Of a stretch of DNA of 32,000 bases, positions 1,223 to 16,223 are shown piece after piece. The stretch is from positions 1,770,001 to 1,802,000 of the forward strand of contig OX638337.1 in NCBI GenBank assembly GCA_951812855.1. Reading direction: 5' to 3'. Under the pieces are notes generated by a model. It did not search any database and had not been told where the DNA came from. It saw only the letters and a list, made by a program, of their open reading frames with translations. Made by a program: the position numbers and the translations under genes. The stretch's first letter is position 1. Every line of letters begins with the position of its first letter. The DNA is from an uncultured Lentisphaeria bacterium. Its GTDB lineage: Bacteria; Verrucomicrobiota; Lentisphaeria; JABSQK01; JAJFLO01.

Positions 1223-3910
1223 ATGTCAGAACCAGGTATGGCAAAAGCATATAATCCGAAGGAATGCGAAGAAAAATGGTATGATCAGTGGGATAGAAGC
1301 GGACACTTTCACGGTCATGTAAATGATGATAAAGAATCTTATACGATTGTTATCCCGCCACCCAATGTTACCGGTGTTCTCACGCTGGGCCATGTCCTCA
1401 ATAATACATTGCAGGATATTTTAATTCGATGGCAGAAAATGATGGGAAAAGAAGTTTGCTGGGTACCCGGAACTGATCATGCAGGAATTGCCACTCAGGC
1501 AAAGGTCGAGGCATATTTGAAAGAGGAGGAATCGTTAACACGATTTGATCTTGGCCGGGAAAAATTTCTGGGAAGGGTATGGGAGTGGAAAGAAAAATAC
1601 GGAGGTACAATCATCCGTCAGCTAAAAACCCTTGGTGTTTGCTGTGACTGGAGAAGGGAACGATTTACGCTTGATGATGGATTGTCAGATGCCGTGCAGG
1701 ATGTCTTTATCCGGTTGTATGAAAAAGGGCTTATATACAAAGGTAAACGTATTATCAACTGGTGTCCGAAATCACACACTGCGTTATCAGATGAAGAAGT
1801 TATCTATCGGTCGGCCAAAGGATCATTGTGGTATATAAACTATCCGATTAAAGATGGTTCAGGACATATAACCGTAGCAACCACCCGCCCCGAAACGATG
1901 CCGGGAGATACCGGAATTGCAGTTAACCCAGATGATGATCGATTTAAACACCTAATTGGTCAATCAGCCATTCTTCCGTTGGTGAATCGTGAAATCCCGA
2001 TTTTTGCGGATGATTATGTAGACAAAGAATTTGGGACAGGTGCTGTAAAGGTCACACCCGCACATGATCCGAATGATTATGAAATGGGACTCCGCCATGA
2101 TCTGAAGGTTATTAACGTTATGAATGAAGACGCATCATTGAATGAACACGCTGGAAATAACTACAAAGGGTTAGATCGGTATGTGTGCAGAGAGAAAATC
2201 ATTCAGGACTTAAAGGAACAGGGGTATCTTGATAAAATAGAGGATTACGAAAATCAGATTGGCTATTCCGAACGCGGACATGTGCCGGTAGAACCCCTCC
2301 TCAGTGAACAATGGTTTGTCGATATGAAGCCTCTTGCAGAGCCCGCATTAAAAGCGGTCAATGACGGACGCATTCGCTTTCACCCGGAACGCTGGGTAAA
2401 AACCTATAATCATTGGATGGAAAATATCAAAGACTGGTGCATCAGTCGCCAATTATGGTGGGGACATCGGATTCCTGCATATTATTGTAACAATTGTAAA
2501 GAAGCAGCCGTATCAAAAACAAAACCCGAATCATGTGCAAAATGTTCCCATACCGAATTTCATCAGGACAAAGATGTCCTGGATACCTGGTTCAGTTCCT
2601 GGCTCTGGCCGTTTTCAGTTTTTGACTGGCCAAAAGAAAATGCAGACCTAAGCCATTTTTACCCGACCCAATCCCTGGTAACAGGACCGGATATTATCTT
2701 TTTCTGGGTGGCTCGAATGATTATGTCCGGATTGGAATTTATGGGTGAAATACCCTTTAAAGACGTTTATTTCACGTCAATCATTCGCGACGATAAAGGC
2801 CGGAAATTATCCAAAAGCCTTAATAATTCACCTGATCCACTCGATGTCATAGAAACTTATGGTGCTGACGCACTTCGATATACCGTAATTTATATCGCTC
2901 CGGTAGGACAGGACATCCGGTACAGTAATGAAAAATGTGAGATCGGACGTAACTTCGCTAATAAATTGTGGAATGCAGCACGATTCCGCCAAATCCAGGG
3001 AGATATTTCTCCGGACTGGCAGAATTTAGACGGATTGAATTGTTCGGATTTACGCCCTGACGACCGCTGGCTGCTATCACGATTAAGCAGCGAAATAGAA
3101 ACGATTACCCACAGCCTGACCCAATTCGACTTCCATAGATATGCGATCCAATTATATGAATTTATCTGGAACGAATTTTGTGACTGGTACGTCGAATCCG
3201 CCAAAACCGCATTCTACAGTGAAGATGAGTCTTTAAAGGTGATCGTATTAAGAGTCTATGACTTTGTATTCTCTCATATTCTCCGACTTATGCACCCTGT
3301 CATGCCGTTTGTAACAGAGGAATTGTATAGTGCACTTAATTATATATCCAGTAACAATTCAATAATGATTGCAGATTGGCCTCAGTCCTTTACCAATGAA
3401 CTCAAAAACCAACTTGGATTAACGCAGCAATATGAAACCCTTGTGAAGGAAAAATTTAATCTGATAAAGTTGGGCCGTAACCTGAGAGGAAACTACAATA
3501 TTCCTTATAGCCGGAAAATTTCCTATATCATTAAACCAACCGATAAAAAATTCACTGAAATGCTGCAACAGGATGTTAATTCGACATTGGGATTATTGAA
3601 TGCCGACAATATTGACTTTGATTCGAACTATGTGGCAACAGGATCCGTGGTGACGTCCGCCATAGGTAATCTGGGATTGATTTTTATGCCGTTAACCGGG
3701 GTGATTGATATCGAATCAGAGCGTAAACGACTGGTCAGGCAGAAGGAAGAACTTGAGGGGTATCTGGCTTCAATAAATAAAAAACTGGAAAACGAAAATT
3801 TTCTCAACCGTGCACCCGAAGAAGTTATTCAAAAAGAGCGCGATCGAATGATCGAATATACCGAAAAAATTGATCACGTAAGTTCTGTATTAAACGATCT
3901 AAGCGAATAA
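1223..3910 (+). CDS. valS: Valyl-tRNA synthetase
   Basis: The 897-aa ORF shows a class I aaRS HIGH-type motif (PPPNVTGVLTLGHVLN), a KMSKS-type motif (GRKLSKSLNN) and a C-terminal coiled coil. The track ORF starts at TTG 1217. I prefer ATG 1223, which lies 11 nt after a GGAG at 1208-1211; ATG 1238 is also possible. Confidence 0.95.
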   Translation: MSEPGMAKAYNPKECEEKWYDQWDRSGHFHGHVNDDKESYTIVIPPPNVTGVLTLGHVLNNTLQDILIRWQKMMGKEVCWVPGTDHAGIATQAKVEAYLKEEESLTRFDLGREKFLGRVWEWKEKYGGTIIRQLKTLGVCCDWRRERFTLDDGLSDAVQDVFIRLYEKGLIYKGKRIINWCPKSHTALSDEEVIYRSAKGSLWYINYPIKDGSGHITVATTRPETMPGDTGIAVNPDDDRFKHLIGQSAILPLVNREIPIFADDYVDKEFGTGAVKVTPAHDPNDYEMGLRHDLKVINVMNEDASLNEHAGNNYKGLDRYVCREKIIQDLKEQGYLDKIEDYENQIGYSERGHVPVEPLLSEQWFVDMKPLAEPALKAVNDGRIRFHPERWVKTYNHWMENIKDWCISRQLWWGHRIPAYYCNNCKEAAVSKTKPESCAKCSHTEFHQDKDVLDTWFSSWLWPFSVFDWPKENADLSHFYPTQSLVTGPDIIFFWVARMIMSGLEFMGEIPFKDVYFTSIIRDDKGRKLSKSLNNSPDPLDVIETYGADALRYTVIYIAPVGQDIRYSNEKCEIGRNFANKLWNAARFRQIQGDISPDWQNLDGLNCSDLRPDDRWLLSRLSSEIETITHSLTQFDFHRYAIQLYEFIWNEFCDWYVESAKTAFYSEDESLKVIVLRVYDFVFSHILRLMHPVMPFVTEELYSALNYISSNNSIMIADWPQSFTNELKNQLGLTQQYETLVKEKFNLIKLGRNLRGNYNIPYSRKISYIIKPTDKKFTEMLQQDVNSTLGLLNADNIDFDSNYVATGSVVTSAIGNLGLIFMPLTGVIDIESERKRLVRQKEELEGYLASINKKLENENFLNRAPEEVIQKERDRMIEYTEKIDHVSSVLNDLSE

Positions 3911-4255
3911 AAATTAATTTATGAATTGTGTATCCTATCGAATATGATTCGGTTTTCAATAGGTTCTCGGCAATACAGCCACCGGGAAACACGGAGCTGA
4001 GTAAACTCACGTGTCATGTCCTGGCACTGTGCTCCAGAACGAGTCATTTGAGCCGTATTTGTTTATCGCTTCGCACACAAATATGCTTCACTCTGAACAA
4101 AATGGCTCAGCTCCAGGCTTAATTTTGGGCATAATTTATTTAATCTCAATGAATTCTGCTGAATATCACCAACTTATTTATTTCGTGATAATTACAAGCA
4201 AAAAATACGGAGTTATCACAAAACAGTTCAGACGTTTTACAAGATATCCATTTTG

Positions 4256-4272
4256 TGATAATAATATTATCA
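4256..4272. promoter_or_regulatory. Perfect 17-bp palindrome TGATAATAATATTATCA (Fur-family-like operator arms) just upstream of the RBS of the 4296 gene
   Basis: The palindrome was checked base by base: 4256 pairs with 4272 and so on inward to 4263/4265, with the centre at 4264. The arms TGATAAT/ATTATCA equal the arms of the 7-1-7 Fur box, but the spacer is 3 nt instead of 1. Further GTGATA/TATCAC half-sites occur at 4164-4169, 4185-4191 and 4213-4219. Confidence 0.4.
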
Positions 4273-4295
4273 GGTGACAAACGGAAGGAGCAAAA

Positions 4296-4688
4296 ATGAA
4301 GAAACGAATCTCTTTTGTTTTAATGCTAATTTCATTGGCTGGTCAAAGTTGGGCACAAGAAACAAACCGAAACCAATTCTCCAGTTCTCCAGAGACATCT
4401 CGCTGCCAGATTATACAGTCTGAACCGGCCGCAAGGATCACACTGAAAATTGATAAATATACAGGGCATGTCTTTCAACTTGTTCGAGGTAGTAAAGGGT
4501 TGTCCTGGCAATTGATAATGGCGGAAAAACACCCCGAAGATAATGCGACACCAAACCAAGTCAATTATCAGGTTTTTACATCTGGTCTGGCAGTAAGGAT
4601 GACATATTTGTTGAATGTAAATACTGGTGCCACGTGGCAGTTAGCCAGGGACGATACGTTTGGTGTTTTCTGGGCGGCTTTGGAGTGA
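4296..4688 (+). CDS. Small secreted hypothetical protein (130 aa) with an N-terminal signal peptide
   Basis: A strong RBS (AAGGAG at 4285-4290) precedes the ATG. The signal peptide reads MKKRISFVLMLISLAGQSWA/QE. The mature part contains two similar segments (KYTGHVFQLVRG... and NVNTGATWQLARD...). I recognise no family. Confidence 0.75.
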   Translation: MKKRISFVLMLISLAGQSWAQETNRNQFSSSPETSRCQIIQSEPAARITLKIDKYTGHVFQLVRGSKGLSWQLIMAEKHPEDNATPNQVNYQVFTSGLAVRMTYLLNVNTGATWQLARDDTFGVFWAALE

Positions 4689-4790
4689 GTATCATTTAAC
4701 AAGGGCTGCATTCGGATGGCAATTTCGCTACGCTTTATTGTTGCTGGTGAGCTGAGTTCTTATGTACAATAAAAATGGAGCAAAAAACAA

Positions 4791-5173
4791 ATGAAGTTTA
4801 AATATTTTAGCCTACTGATTTTAACGGCGTCCATTCTCTCCGGTTGTTCAACCACTGGCCTGGTTCAGGGATGCAGGCCAAGTCAATGCAAATTAGTCCT
4901 GGTACAACGAAAAGCGAGGTTATCTCTATTCCTGGCGTTCCAGGAGACCGGAGCTTCGAGGGCAAGGGTGAAGCCTGGCAATACTGTTCAACAGGGTTTT
5001 CTTATGATAAGTACATGATTGTATGGTTTCATGAGGGCATTGTTCACGGCCTTACTTCTTCTTATAGAAGCGATTCTGCCATGGGTATTTGTATGGAAAG
5101 ATTTTCCGGTGTTGATTGGTGGTTTCAAGCTCCTGAGGACTTGAAAAGAAAACTCAAAATGAAACATGAGTAA
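4791..5173 (+). pseudogene. Lipoprotein gene split across two frames, with a lipobox signal peptide in one frame and a possible SmpA/OmlA (BamE)-like body in the -1 frame
   Basis: ORF 4791-5018 begins MKFKYFSLLILTASILSGC (lipobox LSGC) and then becomes low-complexity Arg/Leu-rich sequence. ORF 4844-5173, in the -1 frame, has no signal peptide of its own. It reads like a folded periplasmic domain (MQISPGTTKSEVISIPGVPGDRSFEG..EAWQYC...). Both frames are open across 4820-5018, so one indel near 4855-4875 would join them. Confidence 0.5.
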
Positions 5174-5588: not shown

Positions 5589-6992
5589 TTACTTTTCATA
5601 GTTAAGGCGTTTGTCCAATGTTGTTCGACTCATCCCGAATACGCGTTGCACCTCAGATTTATTACCCTCACAGTGATCCAGAGCAGATTTTGCAAACATA
5701 TAGTCTATTTTTCTTTCGATAATCTTCGGGTCGTGCCCCTGTTCAATTTCGTGTTTAATTAGAGATTGAATTTTCGAACTTAAATTATTTAAAGAGGGTT
5801 TTACATGGCTGCTGATATTTTTTTTAGGTTGGAGGAGGAGGGTGAATAGTTCAGTTTCCAGGGTTGAGCTTTCAGCACAAACTGCTGCACTTTGCATTAA
5901 TTGGTATAATTCACGAATATTTCCGGGCCATGAATAACTCTGGAGATAATCAATTGCATGGGGTGTTAAAGTCAAGGGAGGAACGTTCAGCAGGATTTGG
6001 AGTTTTGACAGAAAATGTTGTACCAATAAAGGAATGTCTTCAATTCGTTCGCGAAGTGCGGGTAAATCAATCTGACATCCTTTGATTCTATAAAACAGAT
6101 CCTCCCGAAATGTCTTTTTTTCTATCGCTTCTTCAAGATTACAATTTGTCGCTGCAATTATACGAATATCAACATGTAACGTTTCTTCTCCCCCGACCCG
6201 TTCGAATTGACCGTCTTCGAGTACCCGCAATAATTTAGATTGCGTATCCAGGGGCATATCACCGATTTCATCAAGGAACAATGTCCCGCCATCTGCACGT
6301 TCGAAATATCCTGTTCGCTGTTTAAGAGCACCGGTGAATGCACCTTTTTCATGACCAAATAATTCACTGTTTGCAAGTTCCGATGTGATTCCAGCACAAT
6401 TCAATGTGACAAACGGTGTTTTGTGTCGCGGTCCCTGGTTATGAATCACTCTTGCGAGTAACCCTTTACCCGTACCGGTTTCACCCAATATTAGAACTGA
6501 AATAAGATCAGCCGGTGCTATTTTTTTAACACTTTTAATCGCCTTTTTTATACTTACTGACTTCCCGATAATTTCCTGAATTACCGGTTCATTCTGTTCG
6601 TAGTCATTTTCTATTTCAAAAACTGAGAAATCAGATGTTACAATGCTGTCCGGCAGATGTTTTGAAATGGAATCATTCTCTAATTTGAATTCGTATTCAA
6701 GATGACCAAATCGAATGAGATCACCATCTGACAAAGGCTGTTTTGTTTGCTTCTCAAGCCGATTGAATGTGTGGAGCAATCCCTTCTTCTTCCACCATGT
6801 CCCATGTTTGCTTGCTGAATCATATAAACAAAATTCTCCATTTGTTTTTTCTATTACAGCATGAAACCTGGAAATATCGATGTCACCCGAAATCGTGATA
6901 AAACAGGAGCTGCTGCGTCCGATTTCATTCTTACCGTCCTGCAGTACATATTTTTCGGTGGATTTAACTTTCTGAAGAATGCCTTTTTCCAT
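5589..6992 (-). CDS. Sigma-54-dependent transcriptional activator (bEBP) with an N-terminal FHA domain, an AAA+ core and a C-terminal HTH
   Basis: An FHA-like N-terminus spans about aa 20-100 ([24 protein letters not shown]...[12 protein letters not shown]...DGDLIRFG). The AAA+ core shows Walker A GETGTGKG (aa 170-177), an intact GAFTGA (aa 217-222, nt 6327-6344) and Walker [12 protein letters not shown] Fis-type HTH lies at aa ~430-465. There is no receiver domain. Confidence 0.9.
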
Positions 6993-7187: not shown

Positions 7188-8732
7188 TCAATAGATTACA
7201 CCGAGATTACGGATTTCTACTGTTTCAGAATAATTTTCATTCAATGGGTTTGTAAACAATAATTTGAGTATCTGTATGCGTTTCACATCATCTTCCGTAA
7301 AATGACGTGAGTCAAGCTGAGGAAACGATTTTACCATATTTGAAATATTAAAACGAAACGACGTCCATTCACGGTTTACTAATTTTGAATCGTGCAGGCC
7401 TGATTCCAAATTTGCATCATCTAATGTTGAGATACCGGCATAGACACGTGTACCAGAACCGTGCTCCCCTTTGATATCAACCCTGAATTCCAGATTCCCT
7501 TCAACGTTTAGCGGTTCGTTAAACGTGACCATCACACCAACTCCCCACTGCGAATCATACCAGGAGACCTCTATTGCAAGTTTAGTGTTTTCAGGATTGA
7601 CATTTGAACTCAGTATGCCCGTACCAAAAGTTTTCCAATTTTCATCAAAGCGAACAAATGAAAGCTCATCGGTATCATTGACAACCGCATCATTAACCGT
7701 ATCGCTTGCGTTCAATTTGGGAGAATCGCTCAGACTAATATCAATTGCAGAAACCGGTGTATCCGGTTCCGGAATAATCGTTTCAGAATCACTATCCGTC
7801 TGAGTAACGACTAATTGCTGTTCCTCCTGAGAGAGGGCATCCGGTACGTTAATAACCTGAGTAATTGACTTCTGAGGTTTACTGTTGTTACTATTCCGGG
7901 ATAGTGAGAGAATAATAATTGCCATGACGAATAAAAAACTTAGAGGCAAATATAATTTGGAAATTTTGTTGGCATTTTTCGCAATTTTTACCAAGACTAC
8001 CGAGATATCATCTTTTGCCCCGCGCTCTTTTGAGATATCGATAAACTCTTTAGCAATAGACTCAACACCTTTTGTTTTATTATTTTTTAGAATATCTGCC
8101 ACTTCGCTATCACTTAGATGTCTGTTCAGACCGTCAGAGCAAAGCAGGAAAAGGTCATCTGCATTCACTTTTATTTTCGTTGAGTTCAATCGTAAATCTG
8201 ATTTAATGCCGACAGCATTTGTAATCCTGCCTTTTATAATAGAGGGGACCCTGGTTTCATCTTCATATCCCATTTGTGCGGCCATGCTGTGGTCCTGGGT
8301 GAGTCGTTTAAGGGAGTTTCGGCGAAACCTGTAAATCCTGCTGTCACCGGCATGCAATACCTGTGCGGACCCATTTTGTGGTTCCATTATCAATATTGCC
8401 ACTGTAGACCCCATCCCTTCAATATCGTTGGAATGGATTGTTTTGTTAACATCAGAAATTGCTGTTGTTATCGAATCTAAAACATTAAAATGACTGTAAT
8501 TTTGGGCAAATGACTCACATTCATGGGTGATTGAGTTGACGATTAAATCACTTGCCTCTTTACCTCCGGCTGCCCCCCCGATCCCGTCAGCGACACAAAA
8601 AACACCATAATTTTGATCGTACCAACTGGTATGAGAATCCTCATTTTCTGACTTTGTCGCACCTTTTTGGCTGAGGGCAGCACTGTGTTCAATACTGAAC
8701 GGGGAATTTAATAGAGATGTTATAGGATTCAT
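7188..8732 (-). CDS. Membrane-anchored PP2C-family Ser/Thr phosphatase with an extracytoplasmic beta-sandwich (CBM/CIA30-like) C-terminal domain
   Basis: PP2C motifs are present: ENEDSH, FCVADGIGGAAGGKEAS, VLHAGDSRIY, LLCSDGL and GAKDDISVVLVKI. One TM helix lies at aa 260-277 (LYLPLSFLFVMAIIILSL, nt 7902-7955). An acidic S/T/D-rich linker follows, then a ~160-aa C-terminal domain (nt 7191-7664). Confidence 0.9.
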   Translation of the reverse strand: MNPITSLLNSPFSIEHSAALSQKGATKSENEDSHTSWYDQNYGVFCVADGIGGAAGGKEASDLIVNSITHECESFAQNYSHFNVLDSITTAISDVNKTIHSNDIEGMGSTVAILIMEPQNGSAQVLHAGDSRIYRFRRNSLKRLTQDHSMAAQMGYEDETRVPSIIKGRITNAVGIKSDLRLNSTKIKVNADDLFLLCSDGLNRHLSDSEVADILKNNKTKGVESIAKEFIDISKERGAKDDISVVLVKIAKNANKISKLYLPLSFLFVMAIIILSLSRNSNNSKPQKSITQVINVPDALSQEEQQLVVTQTDSDSETIIPEPDTPVSAIDISLSDSPKLNASDTVNDAVVNDTDELSFVRFDENWKTFGTGILSSNVNPENTKLAIEVSWYDSQWGVGVMVTFNEPLNVEGNLEFRVDIKGEHGSGTRVYAGISTLDDANLESGLHDSKLVNREWTSFRFNISNMVKSFPQLDSRHFTEDDVKRIQILKLLFTNPLNENYSETVEIRNLGVIY

Positions 8733-8929
8733 CTATTGGGATTTACTACTTTCAATTCAGCCGGTTTCCCGGAACTTGTTCGATTATAATTTTTTGTAAT
8801 TCATTGGGCCCGGATATGTTGACAGAAAGACTCTGTTTATATGTCAATTGCTTCGAAAGAGAATTTTTAGTGTCCCGCTGAAACGATTCTGTTTCAGTCA
8901 AGTTATGCCTGTGCTCAAATCTACATATT

Positions 8930-8958
8930 TAATTTTGGGGAATTATATACTTAACTCC
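8930..8958. repeat. Left end of the R-M cassette, with direct repeat TAATTTT (8930-8936) followed by terminal inverted repeat ggggaattatatacttaactcc (8937-8958)
   Basis: The reverse complement of 8937-8958 is ggagttaagtatataattcccc. It aligns with 10187-10211 (ggagtcaagtatgtatataattccc) at 20 of 22 positions, with a 4-nt insertion (atgt) in the right copy. The 7-mer taatttt immediately outside is repeated exactly at 10212-10218. Confidence 0.75.
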
Positions 8959-8985
8959 AAAACATACACAATGTGGCGTATGTTT

Positions 8986-9522
8986 TTATGAAAAACATGA
9001 CTGGCACCATGTTTGGAATTGCACCATGTCCATAACCATTATTTTCCGATCATCATTTTTGGTGCGCATTTTTCTAGTTTCCACCGCTTTTTTTAACCAG
9101 TATAACGCCCCCTTTTTCCAACCCTTTCCATCAATTAAGATGATGATCTCTTTTTCCTCCCAACGCTCAATTGCGTTGAGATAAACATAGGGCAATTTTT
9201 CATCTACACTACCGCTAACAGCTTGCCATTTGCACTCTACCCTGCAAAATATATTGTTTTGTGGGTCAGATATTATAAATTCACTCCTACTTAAAGACTG
9301 GGAAGAAGGAGTTGGTACATGTTCAGTTTCAGCAACTTTATAAATTGATATATATGGTGCATTTTTAATCAGGTATCTCTGTTTTTTTTGTGCTTGTGTT
9401 AGTTTTATCCATTCACGATAGGGTATAATATCAAACCCTCTTGGTATTAGAGCGTTGCTAACAACCCCCTCAAGAATTTTCCCAGATTTATTGGCGTTTG
9501 AACCTTGACTAGGCATTGTCAT
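8986..9522 (-). CDS. Putative type II restriction endonuclease (PD-(D/E)XK fold)
   Basis: The 178-aa ORF has a candidate catalytic motif D86...E96-C-K98 (SEFIISDPQNNIFCRVECKWQ) followed by GSVDEKLPY. Its ATG overlaps the stop codon of the upstream methyltransferase gene (ATGA at 9519-9522), implying translational coupling. The family and specificity are not recognisable by eye. Confidence 0.55.
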   Translation of the reverse strand: MTMPSQGSNANKSGKILEGVVSNALIPRGFDIIPYREWIKLTQAQKKQRYLIKNAPYISIYKVAETEHVPTPSSQSLSRSEFIISDPQNNIFCRVECKWQAVSGSVDEKLPYVYLNAIERWEEKEIIILIDGKGWKKGALYWLKKAVETRKMRTKNDDRKIMVMDMVQFQTWCQSCFS

Positions 9523-10130
9523 CTAACTTTAATGCAAGTGCCATGCACTTTGAAATGTGTTTTGAATTTTTTATATTGTTCACCAAAATAAAAAAACACC
9601 TGACCCCGTGTGTTGTTGCTGACCACCTTATGATCGGTGTTCCAAAAACTAATACGATGATGGGTCAAGCACAACCCATTACAGCGGGCGATGATTGCCT
9701 GAAACCAACGTGTTTCTGTGGCGTTATTAGTCAAAATAATACCTGATTGTATATGCCCTGTCTTGTATTCATTTAGATACTTATTGACACAATCAATGAT
9801 TAACTTGGCTGAGTAGGGTGGGTTCATAAAAACAGAGACCCGTTTTGCTACTGCCCAGCTTTGATTTAACCCATTAGTATCCTCATTAAAATAATATTTT
9901 GCTTTTACGATTTTATTTGCCTGCGGACTTGAAAAAGGATCCAATATAATCTGTCCCATCACTGATTTCGCACTTTCTATATACTCTTCTGGCGTGAACC
10001 AGGCATCGCTCTTTCGATTATGACTAGGAGTGCGTCCGATATAGCCAAGACGATTTTTATTGGCTATACTCCTAGTCACTGGATTAGGACATGAGCGATG
10101 ATTAAATGTGGATATGGTATTGTCTTGCAT
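9519..10130 (-). CDS. DNA N6-adenine methyltransferase of the phage Dam-like family (small, single-domain)
   Basis: The 203-aa ORF shows WFTPEEY, ILDPFSS and catalytic motif IV NPPYS (aa 103-107, nt 9810-9824). This order is typical of the small phage-type Dam family (WxTP ... DP ... NPPY). The target sequence is unknown. Confidence 0.8.
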   Translation of the reverse strand: MQDNTISTFNHRSCPNPVTRSIANKNRLGYIGRTPSHNRKSDAWFTPEEYIESAKSVMGQIILDPFSSPQANKIVKAKYYFNEDTNGLNQSWAVAKRVSVFMNPPYSAKLIIDCVNKYLNEYKTGHIQSGIILTNNATETRWFQAIIARCNGLCLTHHRISFWNTDHKVVSNNTRGQVFFYFGEQYKKFKTHFKVHGTCIKVR

Positions 10131-10167
10131 TAGATGAGTTCCTGATTTAACGCCTTTATTATGATAG

Positions 10168-10194
10168 ATTATATCAGGCGTCTGTTGGAGTCAA
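10168..10194 (-). promoter_or_regulatory. Candidate sigma-70-type promoter for the MTase/REase pair, with the -35 element contributed by the right TIR
   Basis: The minus strand reads TTGACT (10194-10189), then 15 nt, then TATAAT (10173-10168), about 38 nt upstream of the MTase ATG at 10130. The 15-nt spacing is shorter than the optimal 17. An inverted repeat ACGCCT/AGGCGT (10150-10155 and 10176-10181) brackets the -10 element. Confidence 0.3.
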
Positions 10195-10218
10195 GTATGT
10201 ATATAATTCCCTAATTTT
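10187..10218. repeat. Right end of the R-M cassette, with terminal inverted repeat ggagtcaagtatgtatataattccc (10187-10211) followed by direct repeat TAATTTT (10212-10218)
   Basis: See the left-end entry for the alignment. The repeat ends 15 nt from the kinase stop codon (10233-10235). A further partial copy of the TIR tip (tatataatccc, 10221-10231) sits just outside the direct repeat. Confidence 0.75.
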
Positions 10219-10232
10219 GATATATAATCCCT

Positions 10233-13200
10233 TTACTGATCACGAATAGCTGTTGCCATTTTAGATACATCAGTTTGAGATTGACTGTTTAATTCCAATA
10301 TTCCAAATGTTGAAGGATTTCGAGATTTAAATCCCGGGGAGGATGAAATCAAGGTTTTTTTATCCCGATCAGAATCTGCAACAACAATATTAAATCCCAA
10401 CTGATACTCGGGGAAAAAATTTGCTTCCTTCTCATTATAAGGAGTATTAAAAAATTGTTCGTCAGAATCGGAATAAAGGACTCTGTTTTTTCCCATTGAT
10501 ACGGTTTTATTGTTGTAGAGCACCGGGAATGGAATTTCTATTTCCAAAGTATAACCATCAACTGATTTCGATGCGGCTGTTTTTATTTCCCGATTTAAAT
10601 CTGTACTCATTAACGGTATTGATACTGTGGTTTCAGGGGAATTTTTATCAAAATCACCCGGATTTACAAGTAATAAAAAGTCATCGCCGGACATAACACT
10701 TTCTGTAAAATCTTCAGACAACTGTAAATCCAGCCACAGTTCAATATGATCACGATCTTTAACACCGGCCGTCACATTTGTTTCGCTGAGATCTAAATCA
10801 AAAACCCGAAATGCCCAATAAATATAATCTTTATTCCACGCACTATAGTATTCGCATGAAATTGTGTCATTGACAGATTCTTTTTCTGTCAAATTTGATG
10901 TTGTTGACATTACAGCCGGTTCTAAATGTTGCCAATCTTTCAGATTACCATCAACCGATATCAACTGATTGGATTGATAAGAAACAAATCGTGTTAATTC
11001 AGTTTCCGAATTCCTCCATCGTAATAAATTCTGCGGCAATTTTTTTTCTTTGTGAAGATTCATATAAGACATAAATGAATCAATGACAATTCCCCCAAAT
11101 GCATTTTGATTGGTGTAATGATTTGTAACTAACTGAAGTTGCTCTTCCATTGATTTCCAGCCTTCTTCATAAAATGTATTATGTCGAAAAAAATGAATAC
11201 CATCGGCGAAATTTCCAGTTTGATTTGCAATTATCGTTTTTTTAGATACCTGGTTTGCAAATTTTATACAGTTCTCAGACGAATTAATAATTGAAAGGGC
11301 GTTATCATAATAATCTGATAAAATTGTGTAATCAACAATAGAAATAATCTCCTCCAATAACTTCAAATCTGTATTCATTTCACGTGAAAGCATGAAACTT
11401 AATTTGAAATTCTGACCTGGGAATGTCGCAATAAGACCGTTGATTTTTTTTAGCAAAATTAATAAGTTTTCCTGAAACGCCTTGTCACCAGCGATTTGAG
11501 CTGACTGATCTGCATTGAGACCAATTAATAAGCCTTCTATTTTTTGAGCATCCCGGGTTAATTCGTTAAACTCCAATATGCTGCGTATTTGCCGATGTAT
11601 TTCAGAATGTAAGTCTTTTGATGACCAATCCTCTTTGATCATGAAGAGATTTGGAGAAATCTCCTTAGTTTTACATTCATTCAGGAACTGGATTAGGAGA
11701 TTTTCGTTCCGTGAATCTTTAATAAAATAATGATCCGGATTATGGGTTAAAACAAATACAGTATCAATTGCAGCTGTTTCACATAATGAAAATAAATGAC
11801 GCTTTATGATCGGATATAAAACGGGATTTACATCTCTGATTATTAACCCTCGGGAAAGTACAGCATTAGACTCTGCTTCAGGATAGATTACATCATTGCC
11901 TATTTTATCTGACAGGAACATTAGGTCATCTATATAAACAACACCTTTTCCGATATTGTTAAAGGAAAAATTCAGGGAAATAACCTGACTTACGTCGTGC
12001 TCGGTTTTGACTAAATCTAAAGGGAAAATTATTTCCTGCCACTCTCGCGTGATTCCCTTAGGCAAAAAATACTCAGCCTGACCTAATGATATTAGCTGGG
12101 AATCAGATTTTTCGTTTTTATTGGTCACAGTTACTTCGAAGCTTTCATTCCCGACAGTGCCTTTTACCCAGAGTGAGAGCGTTGCGTATTTTTCAAGATT
12201 AAGCTCGTCGAACCGATAGATTAAATCACACATGCCGGCGATCTTATGATCATAAGATACTTTCATGGACATACCACGCTCGCCCTTGAAATATTCAAGA
12301 CTCTTTTTCGGGAGGATAAAATTCGGAGACTGTGCTGCAATTTCAATCCCGTTATTCAATGATAAATCGTTAAAATCGTCAATCAATTTATGACTGTTAT
12401 AATGAATTATTTCAGAAAATAATTTTGAGATGTCATGTCTTAATCTGTCCATGCTACCGGTTTTCACCGGTAATTGATTTAACCTTTCCCCCAATGCTGA
12501 TATTTCAGCAAAAAACAGAAGCTGATCATCCTTGATATCATGTTTGTTTAACGATTTCGGATAGTGATTCTGCAGATATAATAACTCTTTTCGGCATAGA
12601 GATTCAATCCAGATGATATCGTTTGTTGTAATACTTGATACGGAAATGTCCTGATAATTTTCAAAAATATTCCAGGCCAGATCAAAGTCATTACGATTAT
12701 ATCCTGAGAACGGTATTTTTTTCAAATGCCCAAACATATATGTATCTAAATCCCGTCTCAGTTCAGGTTCGGATTTTAAGTCAAAGTCCTGGAGGATCGT
12801 ATTTCTAAAATCAACCATATCCTGAATATTATTTCCTTTTTGGGTAATAATATTTTCACTTATACTTACGATGTGTTCATACACCAGATTCCCGAGTTTA
12901 GACAGATAAAGGAGACGGGTCGACTCAGCCAAACCGGCCTCTGTAATTACCTGGATTCGATGATAAAGAGCAGCCAGGCTGATTAACTGCTGTTCATTTG
13001 CAGTGCCCTGTAAAACAGTCTTAAATTCCGCAATCAAACCGGAGGATTGATTTTGTAAAAAAGAGTCAATAAACTGATAATAATCCTCTGATCTATTCAG
13101 CACATCATCAATAAAAAATTCATTCGGCTTATTTGCCTTTATCTGTTTCAAAGAGAACTTCAGAAACTCGATTGAATCCTGTGGATTACGATTCGCGATC

Positions 13201-16200
13201 ATCGCCATGCTTTCATACCAGGGATCCAGTTTATACCGATAATTATAAATCTGATTCAGTTTATCCGAATCATTTCTTAATGAATGAACTCCCATAAAGC
13301 CCAGCACGAAAGTCAGTGTCAAAAAACTGTATCTGAGAACCTTCATTGTCCAGTCAAATCGTGACGGAACCGGAATGAGATTTGTAATCGGTGTATCAAA
13401 TGATTCAGAGGTATTTCCCCGAGATTTCAGGCGGGATAATTTTCGTAAATTTTTTGAAATTTCACGGCGACATCCAACGACATTTGAATACCGGCTTCCG
13501 GGATCGGGGTGAAGCATTTTTTCAAAAATTTTCAGCGTTCCGGAATCAAACGGGTGATTTAATTTCGGCACCCACCACTTTGCCCCCTTTTTCTTTACCC
13601 ATGAACTTCGTTTAACACACAATTTTTCCCAGTTTGATTCCGGCAGTCTCCATGGATAGGCAGATTGTCCGTTTAAGGTTTCAAACAAACAGAGCCCCAG
13701 ACTGAATATATCTGTTCTGACATCGCCTCTTTCACCGGTTATAATGATTTCCGGTGCCATATATTCGGGTGTTCCGGGAATTGCACCATTTGTACTCTCA
13801 CCCGTATTATCCTTAGCAATTCCCAGATCCAACAGTATGGGAACATCATCATCGTTTATGAATAAATTATCCGGTTTAACATCTCGATGAATAAACCCAT
13901 TCTTATGGCAATGCTCAACGGCTGACAGGTATCCCAGAAACCACCTGAGACCTCGTTCGACATCAATTTTATAGTCGTTCTCCACATCTTCAATTGCATT
14001 TTTGAGAGTCATTCCCCGGAGATATTCCATGACTAACAAAGGTGGACGCTGAATGGTTACATCCATTTGATTGTGGTCTGAGGCGACGTCAATGAATTTT
14101 ACAATATTTTTATGTCGTAAAGATTTTAATATTTTAGATTCATCATTTGCTCGTTCTATAGCTGATTTACGTTTTGAAAAAGATGCATTTTCTGTTCTCT
14201 TACTTACTTTTTGAGGGAACAGTTCATCCTTCAGGCTCTTCATTACAACACTGTCACCGTTACTTAATTGTCTGGCTTTATGAACATCTGCATGTCCTCC
14301 CGTTTCAACAATCTTTTCCAGATATTCATAATGATCATTTGAACCAATAACCACATTGCCAAATTTTTTGTCAATAAGCTTTGCATTGACTAACGATTCC
14401 AGGCGATTAATCGTCTCATTAAGGGCTTTTGGTTGACTTAACATTTTCAAAAGAATCCGGCTGAGTTCCGGTAAACTTGATAATAATAATTCTTTATCGA
14501 GTTCCGGTAACGTAATGTCATCGTTATCTGAATATTCATGTGCATGCCTGCGAAAATGTTTCAAATAGTCTGACGACAAATTATCAGGCGAAAAAATAAC
14601 GATCAACAGTTCGGCAACTCTCCTGATATCCTGCAGCTGATTCTGAATCAGTGACTCATCAGAGCAGCTGTTCAACGTCGAATGCCTAATCAAAATGTCA
14701 TTATTGAGATGCTCGAAAATAACAATTGAATGATGTGTCAGATTCCCGTGATAAAGTCGAAGCGAATGAATCATTTTAAGTTTGTTCAAAATCGCCTTTA
14801 AGACATTGAGAATATCTATAATATGATTTTGCTTAATGTGATTTTTAATAAAATCAGGTAAGAAAGTATGGTTTGTTATTGGATCAAAAACCGCCCATGA
14901 TTTGTTTGTTTTTATATCAGTAATGACCGATTGCGGCAGTCTCAGGTGATTCTCAAGTTGCTTAACAGATGTCAGTTTTTTGAGAATTTTCGTCCGATCA
15001 TCTAAATTTGAATCGGTTACATCCTCTAAAAAAACTATTTTCGGATTACTATGGTTTTTATTTAGAATGATTGACATCACCTTTGCCGCATCATTCTGAA
15101 TTAATTGATAATTCGGATAGCAATCCTTAACACGGTCCAGTAAGTGATCTAAACGACTTGCTTTGGATAAACATTTATTTATAAATTGAGCGTTTGCTTT
15201 TTTACCAGTTTCAGAAACTGCCCGACTATTTTTTACCCGGACCTGAGTTAACAGCTCATTGAGACCTTCCAGTACGTCTGAAAATGTTCTATAACGACAT
15301 TCCCGCACCCAGGCAAACCCCGCCTTAATATGGTGAATTAGTTCTTCATTCATACTCTTTACAGTTTCACCATCATAATCTACCGGTTGATTGAAACCGA
15401 ATGCTGCTGTCGGATAGAATTTTAGAATTTGACCGAGACTGAATCGCTGGGTCCGTTTCCTGGCTAAGCAACGTGTTACAAACGTCCTTAGCTTAGGATT
15501 ATTCTGGAAAACTTCATTCGAAAAATCAGTATTTTCTTCATTGTACGATTTTGCCCACTCTAATAATTCCAGAGGCGTATATGTCTTTAGTTCCGGAATC
15601 GGATTTTTACCGGTAATTGTTTCGTAAAAACACACACCAAAACTAAAGATATCCGATTCTTCATCCCCCCTGTTTGATGACGAATAGAATAATTCAGGGG
15701 CTATATAACCATAGGTGCCCGCAGCTAATCCGGAATCTGCTGTGGCTGTACCGTCTTTTTCAGTGGCAATTGAAAAATCTGTCAACTTTAATGTTCCGTC
15801 ATCACATATGAAGATATTGCTCGGTTTAACATCTCGATGGATAATCTTTTTTTCGTTTATTCTGTGAGCATAGTGAAGTGCCTTTGCACATTGGATAAAA
15901 ATGTTTATTGCATCTTCGAGGGGCACATTGTTAACACGGCTTAATTCTTCTTTCAGAGTATTGCCGTTGAGCCACTCCATGACAAGGAAATCACGGACAA
16001 TCCCACTCTGAGTTGCTCGAATACATGACGTGGCAGAAACAATACTCTCATGCTTGAGATTGATTGGGTAGGCTTCTTTTTTGAGAGATGCGTTATATTT
16101 CAATCGTTTTAATGCAACTCTATTACCTGTCTGCTTATCTTTTGCCTCAAAAACATCACCGAAACTACCGGACCCGATACATTCACCAATGCTGAAAATT

Positions 16201-16223
16201 TGTTCGATATCGATTACAGACAT
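10233..16223 (-). CDS. Giant (1996 aa) transmembrane receptor with tandem Ser/Thr protein kinase domains and a ~1000-aa carbohydrate-binding-type ectodomain
   Basis: Kinase 1 spans aa ~10-270 with GSGSFGDV, VALK (K39), HRD at aa 129-131 (nt 15831-15839), DFS at 149-151 (nt 15771-15779) and GYIAPE. A degenerate kinase-like segment lies around aa 380-560 (LRLYHGNLTHHSIVI). Kinase 2 spans aa ~632-905 with VVMK, HRD at 779-781 (nt 13881-13889), DLG at 799-801 (nt 13821-13829) and PEYMAPE. A TM helix lies at aa ~962-982 (nt 13278-13340). The ectodomain has a beta-sandwich CBM/CIA30-like module (aa 1318-1440), a glycoside-hydrolase-like alpha/beta region (aa ~1455-1745) and a CBM9-like C-terminus (DGNLKDWQHLEP...YIYWAFRVFD...DHIELWLD, aa ~1750-1975). 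Confidence 0.9.
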   Translation of the reverse strand: MSVIDIEQIFSIGECIGSGSFGDVFEAKDKQTGNRVALKRLKYNASLKKEAYPINLKHESIVSATSCIRATQSGIVRDFLVMEWLNGNTLKEELSRVNNVPLEDAINIFIQCAKALHYAHRINEKKIIHRDVKPSNIFICDDGTLKLTDFSIATEKDGTATADSGLAAGTYGYIAPELFYSSSNRGDEESDIFSFGVCFYETITGKNPIPELKTYTPLELLEWAKSYNEENTDFSNEVFQNNPKLRTFVTRCLARKRTQRFSLGQILKFYPTAAFGFNQPVDYDGETVKSMNEELIHHIKAGFAWVRECRYRTFSDVLEGLNELLTQVRVKNSRAVSETGKKANAQFINKCLSKASRLDHLLDRVKDCYPNYQLIQNDAAKVMSIILNKNHSNPKIVFLEDVTDSNLDDRTKILKKLTSVKQLENHLRLPQSVITDIKTNKSWAVFDPITNHTFLPDFIKNHIKQNHIIDILNVLKAILNKLKMIHSLRLYHGNLTHHSIVIFEHLNNDILIRHSTLNSCSDESLIQNQLQDIRRVAELLIVIFSPDNLSSDYLKHFRRHAHEYSDNDDITLPELDKELLLSSLPELSRILLKMLSQPKALNETINRLESLVNAKLIDKKFGNVVIGSNDHYEYLEKIVETGGHADVHKARQLSNGDSVVMKSLKDELFPQKVSKRTENASFSKRKSAIERANDESKILKSLRHKNIVKFIDVASDHNQMDVTIQRPPLLVMEYLRGMTLKNAIEDVENDYKIDVERGLRWFLGYLSAVEHCHKNGFIHRDVKPDNLFINDDDVPILLDLGIAKDNTGESTNGAIPGTPEYMAPEIIITGERGDVRTDIFSLGLCLFETLNGQSAYPWRLPESNWEKLCVKRSSWVKKKGAKWWVPKLNHPFDSGTLKIFEKMLHPDPGSRYSNVVGCRREISKNLRKLSRLKSRGNTSESFDTPITNLIPVPSRFDWTMKVLRYSFLTLTFVLGFMGVHSLRNDSDKLNQIYNYRYKLDPWYESMAMIANRNPQDSIEFLKFSLKQIKANKPNEFFIDDVLNRSEDYYQFIDSFLQNQSSGLIAEFKTVLQGTANEQQLISLAALYHRIQVITEAGLAESTRLLYLSKLGNLVYEHIVSISENIITQKGNNIQDMVDFRNTILQDFDLKSEPELRRDLDTYMFGHLKKIPFSGYNRNDFDLAWNIFENYQDISVSSITTNDIIWIESLCRKELLYLQNHYPKSLNKHDIKDDQLLFFAEISALGERLNQLPVKTGSMDRLRHDISKLFSEIIHYNSHKLIDDFNDLSLNNGIEIAAQSPNFILPKKSLEYFKGERGMSMKVSYDHKIAGMCDLIYRFDELNLEKYATLSLWVKGTVGNESFEVTVTNKNEKSDSQLISLGQAEYFLPKGITREWQEIIFPLDLVKTEHDVSQVISLNFSFNNIGKGVVYIDDLMFLSDKIGNDVIYPEAESNAVLSRGLIIRDVNPVLYPIIKRHLFSLCETAAIDTVFVLTHNPDHYFIKDSRNENLLIQFLNECKTKEISPNLFMIKEDWSSKDLHSEIHRQIRSILEFNELTRDAQKIEGLLIGLNADQSAQIAGDKAFQENLLILLKKINGLIATFPGQNFKLSFMLSREMNTDLKLLEEIISIVDYTILSDYYDNALSIINSSENCIKFANQVSKKTIIANQTGNFADGIHFFRHNTFYEEGWKSMEEQLQLVTNHYTNQNAFGGIVIDSFMSYMNLHKEKKLPQNLLRWRNSETELTRFVSYQSNQLISVDGNLKDWQHLEPAVMSTTSNLTEKESVNDTISCEYYSAWNKDYIYWAFRVFDLDLSETNVTAGVKDRDHIELWLDLQLSEDFTESVMSGDDFLLLVNPGDFDKNSPETTVSIPLMSTDLNREIKTAASKSVDGYTLEIEIPFPVLYNNKTVSMGKNRVLYSDSDEQFFNTPYNEKEANFFPEYQLGFNIVVADSDRDKKTLISSSPGFKSRNPSTFGILELNSQSQTDVSKMATAIRDQ

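Follow-up and report, generated by a model that had tools for sequence, protein, structure and literature searches.

A predicted receptor Ser/Thr kinase and membrane PP2C phosphatase with distantly related, carbohydrate-binding-type ectodomains, encoded beside an FHA-domain sigma-54 activator in a Verrucomicrobia-like bacterium

Paired Ser/Thr kinases and phosphatases are well known in bacteria, and adjacent kinase and PP2C genes accompanied by FHA-domain partners are a classical arrangement. What the ectodomain of a membrane PP2C does is, to our knowledge, an open question even for PstP of Mycobacterium tuberculosis. A 32,000-nucleotide stretch from an uncultured Verrucomicrobia-like bacterium (ENA metagenome assembly, GenBank GCA_951812855.1, contig OX638337.1, positions 1,770,001 to 1,802,000; hereafter the window) brings this question up again. 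The minus strand, which holds all of the genes relevant here, carries open reading frames for a receptor-type Ser/Thr kinase of 1996 residues (10233..16223; Pfam Pkinase, E 9.5e-84 in two stretches, and CBM9_1) and a membrane PP2C phosphatase of 514 residues (7188..8732; Pfam PP2C_2, E 2.1e-14, PP2C and SpoIIE), together with a gene for an FHA-domain sigma-54 enhancer-binding protein (5589..6992; Pfam FHA, E 7.6e-14, Sigma54_activat, E 4e-69, and HTH_8). A sequence-only reading of the locus proposed that the kinase and the phosphatase carry related beta-sandwich modules outside the membrane and that, as antagonists sharing one sensor, they may respond to the same ligand. Here we ask whether the two modules are homologous and whether their homology amounts to a shared sensor. 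We consider it probable, with appreciable room for doubt, that the locus encodes a cassette of a glycan-type receptor kinase, a PP2C phosphatase and an FHA/sigma-54 activator, in which the two modules are distant homologues.

The peptides behind that proposal lie where it had placed them: nucleotides 7191-7664 of the minus strand encode PP2C residues 357-514, and nucleotides 11904-12272 encode kinase residues 1318-1440. The true domain limits, residues 365-509 of PP2C and approximately 1279-1443 of the kinase, are wider than the kinase segment originally chosen. BLASTP comparison of the two segments returns an E value of 0.40 over 41 residues, and the whole proteins do no better. Smith-Waterman scores set against shuffled sequences give p values of 0.002-0.044, varying with the gap costs, and the claimed kinase region scores 59 versus 53 for other parts of the kinase. 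Pairwise similarity alone is not above chance, and an alignment made by eye would not stand by itself. Word-indexed protein searches with the PP2C module, the kinase module or the PP2C-module family alignment found no homologues, and single-sequence searches of the PDB with both modules returned nothing meaningful; homologues of the modules came only from an exhaustive search of representative proteins and from contig look-ups.

The exhaustive search, in which phmmer was run with PP2C residues 337-514 against 1.84 billion representative proteins, recovered 45 representative clusters at E <= 1e-3 (35 at E <= 1e-10), the matched stretch being residues 365-509 (7206..7640, minus strand). A family alignment of 48 sequences (A1) was assembled, and the family hidden Markov model (HMM) scores 160.7 bits on these residues. 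The family is unannotated: no Pfam family matches the window module even at E <= 10, CBM_11 (PF03425) is listed by 0 of the 48 members, and the only matches are two faint ones, to CBM_4_9 or CBM30. Cluster names are likewise uninformative, apart from a single "porin". AlphaFold2 modeling with A1 yielded an all-beta structure with a predicted local distance difference test score (pLDDT) of 94.3 and a predicted template modeling score (pTM) of 0.88. Foldseek comparison of this model with the PDB placed structures of carbohydrate-binding modules (CBMs) on top, namely CBM4, CBM11 and CBM30 at template modeling (TM) scores of 0.53-0.66: CBM4 (1gu3) at E 1.0e-5, CBM11 (1v0a, 2lro and 6r31) at E 1.2-2.2e-5 with TM scores of 0.62-0.66, and CBM30 (2c24 and 1wmx) at E 2-3e-4. 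The modeled fold of the PP2C module is a beta-jelly-roll sandwich of the CBM4/11/30 type. When the A1 profile was compared with PDB sequences, Clostridium thermocellum CBM11 (1v0a, 2lro) was matched at E 1.1e-3 over 100 columns, and by sequence CBM11 appears to be the closest solved relative of the family. The module resembles CBM11 of Lic26A-Cel5E (1v0a, 2lro, 6r31) in its jelly-roll fold and at the level of profile homology; it differs in having no Pfam CBM_11 match and in residing on a signaling phosphatase or on porins rather than on a glycoside hydrolase.

The context of the domain across this family is distinctive. It lies near the N-terminus in 38 members, and in 36 of these it is preceded by a hydrophobic, signal-like stretch. 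Twenty-six members are stand-alone proteins of about 190 residues, seven have tandem copies, seven are fused to OprB-type porins (Pfam OprB was confirmed for member P0002) and six have a different kind of long C-terminal region attached; fusion to PP2C occurs in only 2 of 45, the window protein and member P0004. The porins bearing the module at the N-terminus, sometimes in tandem, are P0002 (positions 2171-4873 of locus L034), P0005, P0013, P0017, P0030, P0031 and P0045, and a gene for a CBM9 protein lies just upstream of P0002.

The module of the kinase (residues ~1279-1443; 11895..12389, minus strand) belongs elsewhere. Compared with Pfam CBM30 (PF21582), it scores E 2.4e-5 and 24.7-24.8 bits, the curated cutoff being 27. 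A first metagenome scan, with alignment A2, found no relatives of it; a second scan found locus L014, which encodes five copies of the module, carried by proteins with hydrophobic N-termini. One of these proteins combines the module with a hydrolase-like domain and a CBM9 in the same layout as the kinase ectodomain. This gene run (L014 5109-11187, on a GC-rich metagenome contig) includes no kinase and, besides the module copies, encodes the hydrolase-like domain twice and CBM9 once. An alignment of seven kinase-module sequences (A4) sets the domain span given above. All seven match Pfam CBM30 (best E 5.1e-12), that is, the window module and its six homologues, and 5 of 7 match CBM_11; the family profile finds CBM30 (1wmx, 2c24) among PDB sequences at E 2.2e-11 and CBM11 (1v0a) at E 1.2e-5, so that the likeness to CBM11 extends to this family as well. 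The window copy differs from CBM30 in falling under the cutoff, in the loss of the Trp of a GWCG motif and in its location in a protein kinase ectodomain. From these profile matches we class the kinase module as a divergent CBM30/CBM11-type domain.

Comparison of the two families by hhalign reveals the relationship that pairwise methods miss. Alignment of A1 with A4 gives a probability of 88-90% and P values of 1.4-2.8e-6 over 96-97 columns, and A1 aligned with the single kinase module reaches 50-52% (P 1.4e-4), a score of 29.4 that 0 of 200 shuffles attain (maximum 21.4) and that exceeds the rest of the kinase (19.5 or less). Reversed alignments return 0.2%, column-shuffled versions of A4 reach at most 24.1 versus 41.0 for the real alignment, and A1 scores only 0.3% against the kinase's own CBM9. 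The A1-A4 alignment follows the register first drawn by eye, pairing EVSW with KVSY, FNEPLNVE with FDELNLE, IKGEHG with VKGTVG and REWTSFRF with REWQEIIF and continuing into the next hydrophobic strand; four of the five segments proposed to be shared in order are thereby recovered in the same register, from family profiles where the pairwise score had been at chance. Because the profile-profile match falls in this register with clean controls, the homology is taken to be real. An origin of the likeness by chance or by convergence from beta-strand periodicity, with no common ancestry, would accord with the BLASTP result, with hhalign probabilities of 0.3% for the two single sequences and 0.5% when the profile of the kinase family is set against the PP2C module alone, and with the fact that shuffled controls do not preserve strand periodicity. 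It is hard to reconcile with a profile-profile P value near 1e-6 while the reversed and shuffled controls stay at background, or with the background score of CBM9, itself another beta-sandwich of the kinase. In addition, both family profiles independently matched CBM11 1v0a in PDB-wide searches, and Foldseek of the confident PP2C-module model leads to CBM11 and CBM30. We regard such an origin as highly improbable.

Homology of this kind does not make the modules one sensor. The sequence-only reading would have a single signal, bound by the same module on both enzymes, switch one on and the other off, and in its favor are the homology itself, the probable periplasmic location of both modules, their conservation in an orthologous pair, and the adjacency of genes with antagonistic functions. 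CBM11 and CBM30 are, moreover, related CAZy families that bind beta-glucan chains. Yet the modules share only about 20% identity and are members of different families, neither being the nearest relative of the other: hhalign gives 93.6% (P 2e-7) for A1 against one CBM11 sequence and 13% against one CBM30 sequence, and 97.7% (P 2.5e-12) for A4 against CBM30 and 94% against CBM11. By these values Clostridium CBM11 is no more distant from the PP2C family than A4 is, and for A4 the much nearer relative is CBM30. The kinase was absent from the results of the exhaustive phmmer search with the PP2C module, and the A1 HMM scores only 2.7-4.6 bits on it in HMMER, with the best position exactly the claimed one. 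The CBM11 and CBM30 alignments, too, contain the motifs common to both modules, namely W-x-x-[FV]-x-[FI]-P and the strands around KG; these are features of the core fold, not determinants of specificity. Nor do the two families occur together in the other loci examined (L014, L033-L035). The profile evidence places the modules as superfamily-level homologues, in two families of a CBM11/CBM30 jelly-roll superfamily with CBM11 as hub, and not as duplicates of one sensor. The claim of related modules accordingly stands as distant homology between predicted beta-sandwiches of a carbohydrate-binding, jelly-roll type, and fails as a claim of one shared sensor module. Since so deep a divergence is uninformative about shared ligand specificity, a common ligand is unproven and the push-pull receptor pair unsupported; we judge such a pair decidedly unlikely. 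A related proposal, that both ectodomains bind the same polysaccharide, whether an envelope glycan or an environmental beta-glucan, and reciprocally tune kinase and phosphatase to control a sigma-54 regulon through the FHA activator, strikes us as very unlikely. A different possibility is that the PP2C module is no sensor at all and anchors a constitutive phosphatase to a periplasmic or cell-wall polysaccharide, where it would act as a localized reset enzyme, the porins being held in the same way. The family context described above, in which small exported proteins and N-terminal modules of OprB porins (7) or of the other long C-terminal region (6) predominate and PP2C fusions are rare, is as this proposal would have it, and the separation of the module from the membrane by a long disordered stalk would suit reach to a wall layer. 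Cyanobacterial porins with S-layer homology (SLH) domains provide a parallel, an N-terminal wall-binding module ahead of the OprB barrel attaching them to the peptidoglycan layer (PMC8707739). In seven proteins of the PP2C-module family the module likewise precedes an OprB barrel, the difference being that it is a CBM11-like beta-sandwich and not an SLH domain, which hints by analogy that on porins of Verrucomicrobia-like bacteria it may serve as an envelope-glycan tether. Against this proposal, the orientation of the porin N-terminus is taken over from other porin families, a fold of carbohydrate-binding type does not fix what is bound, and anchoring and sensing can coexist. We hold pure anchoring to be a serious if unlikely alternative to the cassette with two distantly related ectodomains.

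The extracytoplasmic position of both modules, each following a single membrane helix, was part of the original proposal and is well supported. We infer it from hydropathy together with family context: the cytoplasm is where the catalytic domains must act, and elsewhere members of both module families follow signal-like sequences, so both modules are expected outside. In PP2C, the catalytic domain (residues 26-250; 7983..8657, minus strand) contains the motifs ADGIGG, GDSR, SDGL and DDIS, and is followed by a helix at residues 260-278 (7899..7955; LYLPLSFLFVMAIIILSLS) with a hydropathy of 2.34 over 19 residues; the protein has no other segment of this kind. An acidic stalk rich in Ser, Thr, Asp, Glu and Pro (residues 279-364; 7641..7898) comes next and shows no family match. 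The predicted ectodomain of PP2C is a single 145-residue module on a disordered stalk, versus about 1,000 residues outside for the kinase.

The kinase is more elaborate. Its first kinase domain (residues 11-268; 15420..16193, minus strand) is the best Pkinase stretch and has the motif HRDVKPSN and a Gly-rich loop, IGSGSFGDV; its second (residues 640-913; 13485..14306) matches Pkinase at E 3.9e-40 over positions 40-313 of a fragment spanning residues 601-950. The 370-residue spacer between them (residues 269-639; 14307-15419) has no family match, and neither do the approximately 300 residues that would lie just outside the membrane (residues 983-1278; 12390-13277). A probable single membrane helix is placed at residues ~962-982 (13278..13340) by hydropathy and by a preceding Arg/Lys-rich stretch; the candidate, VLRYSFLTLTFVLGFMGVH, has a hydropathy of 1.37 over 19 residues, the maximum of the entire protein. 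Beyond the CBM30-like module, the ectodomain contains a glycoside-hydrolase-like middle domain (residues ~1445-1750; 10974..11891) and a CBM9-like C-terminal domain (residues 1757-1979; 10287..10955; Pfam CBM9_1, E 1.4e-9, 38.5 bits, cutoff 23.4). No Pfam family was found for the middle domain, and a profile of it built from four homologues (A5) matches PDB 10yv, annotated as "putative GH97 from Cellulomonas fimi", at E 7.1e-9. Stand-alone homologues in L014 (5991-6938 and 10201-11184) have the motif G-V-H-x-D-[IV]-E in this domain, and the two kinases, that of the window and its ortholog described below, have GLLIGLNAD and GFLINPDLS at the site; because the motif is replaced there, the kinase copies may be catalytically dead sensor versions. 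Judged by its domain matches, the kinase ectodomain represents a carbohydrate-active-enzyme layout recruited as a predicted sensor.

The gene order has been preserved in a second genome. Look-up of the contig encoding P0004 led to a locus (L003) of the Verrucomicrobia metagenome-assembled genome OFTM198, where an orthologous kinase (2004 residues, with an architecture matching that of the window kinase), PP2C (601 residues, P0004) and FHA/sigma-54 activator are encoded in the same order as in the window. The gene with FHA and Sigma54_activat domains is directly downstream of PP2C in both. Identity between orthologs is 43-44% for the PP2C module and 32% for the kinase module, and this conservation indicates that both have been maintained. 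The Hanks-type kinase and PP2C genes are direct neighbors in L003, 69 nucleotides apart; in the window two further genes stand between them, encoding a Dam-like DNA N6-adenine methyltransferase (9519..10130; Pfam Dam, E 4.2e-18) and a PD-(D/E)XK nuclease that would be its partner (8986..9522; PDDEXK_11, E 1.1e-33, with a weak DpnII match). Both are absent from the L003 cassette, and given the 69-nucleotide spacing there the pair is best explained as an insertion. This segment (8986-10130, minus strand) resembles a small restriction-modification-type insertion into an operon, and its GC content of 0.380 does not set it off from neighboring genes. Directly upstream of the L003 cassette (L003 1-2470) are genes for a penicillin-binding protein (PBP_dimer/Transpeptidase) and a Mur ligase, neighbors that would fit a cell-wall connection; this neighborhood is not common to the window, where LepA and signal peptidase genes flank the kinase. 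The remaining window genes are those of an ordinary chromosome and include ValRS, LepA, signal peptidase and SucCD.

Several known systems resemble parts of this cassette. Input to sigma-54 activators of the FHA type is thought to come from Ser/Thr kinases and not from histidine kinases, and FHA-domain sigma-54 enhancer-binding proteins of Myxococcus xanthus were reportedly treated by Jelsbak, Givskov and Kaiser in 2005 (cited in PMC4320627). The window activator shares with these Myxococcus proteins the combination of an FHA domain, an AAA+ sigma-54 interaction domain and a helix-turn-helix; it differs in that its gene immediately follows those of a specific kinase/phosphatase pair, an adjacency kept in two genomes, and in that it belongs to another phylum. 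The fhaA-fhaB-pstP-rodA-pbpA-pknA-pknB cluster of M. tuberculosis likewise joins a receptor Ser/Thr kinase and FHA partners to a single-pass PP2C with an extracellular domain. PstP has a cytoplasmic catalytic domain of 237 residues, one membrane helix and an extracellular domain of 191 residues (PMC3052367), and genes for such kinases and phosphatases are commonly adjacent (PMC6213207). The window cassette departs from PknB/PstP in its CBM-like ectodomains, its two kinase domains and its use of a sigma-54 transcription activator as the FHA partner. PknB, in addition, senses by PASTA repeats, in which it differs from the window kinase: a Pfam scan of the whole protein and of pieces of its ectodomain found none.

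The domain content suggests how a three-gene Ser/Thr signaling cassette in this Verrucomicrobia-like bacterium could operate. The kinase would expose its ectodomain of about 1,000 residues outside the membrane, connected by one helix to two cytoplasmic kinase domains, and binding of a glycan there would change kinase activity. The sigma-54 activator, the probable output of the cassette, would then recognize through its FHA domain the phosphothreonine generated by the kinase, and PP2C would reset the system from its cytoplasmic catalytic domain. The CBM11-like module that PP2C is predicted to hold in the periplasm, beyond its single helix and disordered stalk, would act either as a tether to periplasmic or cell-wall glycan or as a separate glycan-dependent control of the phosphatase. 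The class of ligand, the partners in phosphotransfer and any coupling between the two ectodomains are predictions of this scheme, and a glycan-responsive Ser/Thr switch is on this basis plausible.

A number of observations weigh against this interpretation. The kinase module narrowly misses the Pfam CBM30 cutoff (24.8 versus 27 bits), and its single-sequence model is weak and of low confidence (pLDDT 50.3), so that its Foldseek matches, CBM-type sandwiches that include CBM11, CBM61 and CBM4, are no more than suggestive. At the family motif G-W-C-G-[YW]-Y (12170-12200; kinase residues ~1342-1351) the window kinase reads AGMCDL and the L003 kinase GSQCEW. Both keep the invariant Cys and are without the Trp of GWCG, which is replaced by M in the window and Q in L003; this suggests that the binding site is altered or lost in the kinase copies, and because of the missing Trp the kinase module may bind no sugar at all. 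A similar reservation applies to PP2C. The ligand cleft of C. thermocellum CBM11 is lined, as we take it, by the aromatic residues Tyr22, Tyr53 and Tyr129, and in a HMMER alignment to 1v0a the position of Tyr129 is mostly Lys, Arg or Met in the PP2C family and Phe in the window. The tyrosine is not kept, and with no aromatic residue at this position in most members, sugar binding by the PP2C module is unproven. The invariant Trp of a W-G-V-G motif lies, by eye, near Tyr53-Trp54 of CBM11, beyond the reported alignment. The kinase helix is only moderately hydrophobic and weaker than that of PP2C (1.37 versus 2.34). Only two orthologous cassettes were found in the collections searched; a genome scan returned the L003 ortholog already known as the sole one and otherwise CBM9-only matches. 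Finally, a scan of the window for sigma-54 promoter motifs gave 18 matches versus 20.6 expected, none of which stands out.

The locus adds to kinase/PP2C signaling in three respects that appear to be new: CBM-type ectodomains on both enzymes, an unannotated family of PP2C-borne modules, and, in Verrucomicrobia, direct genetic coupling of a kinase/PP2C pair to a sigma-54 activator. Verrucomicrobia are a phylum specialized in the use of polysaccharides. The ectodomain of a bacterial phosphatase now has a confident predicted fold, a CBM11-like sandwich. Remote homology between CBM-type sandwiches is common and alone implies no shared ligand. Should both ectodomains nevertheless prove to bind the same polysaccharide, the cassette would work as a push-pull Ser/Thr switch gated by glycan, a principle for receptor phosphatases that is not known to have been described in bacteria. 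If true, tethering by the PP2C-type module would make its family a new one that binds envelope glycans and takes the place of SLH domains on the OprB porins of this lineage. For the organism itself, the locus provides the hypothesis of a glycan-responsive Ser/Thr pathway that would feed a sigma-54 activator in Verrucomicrobia.

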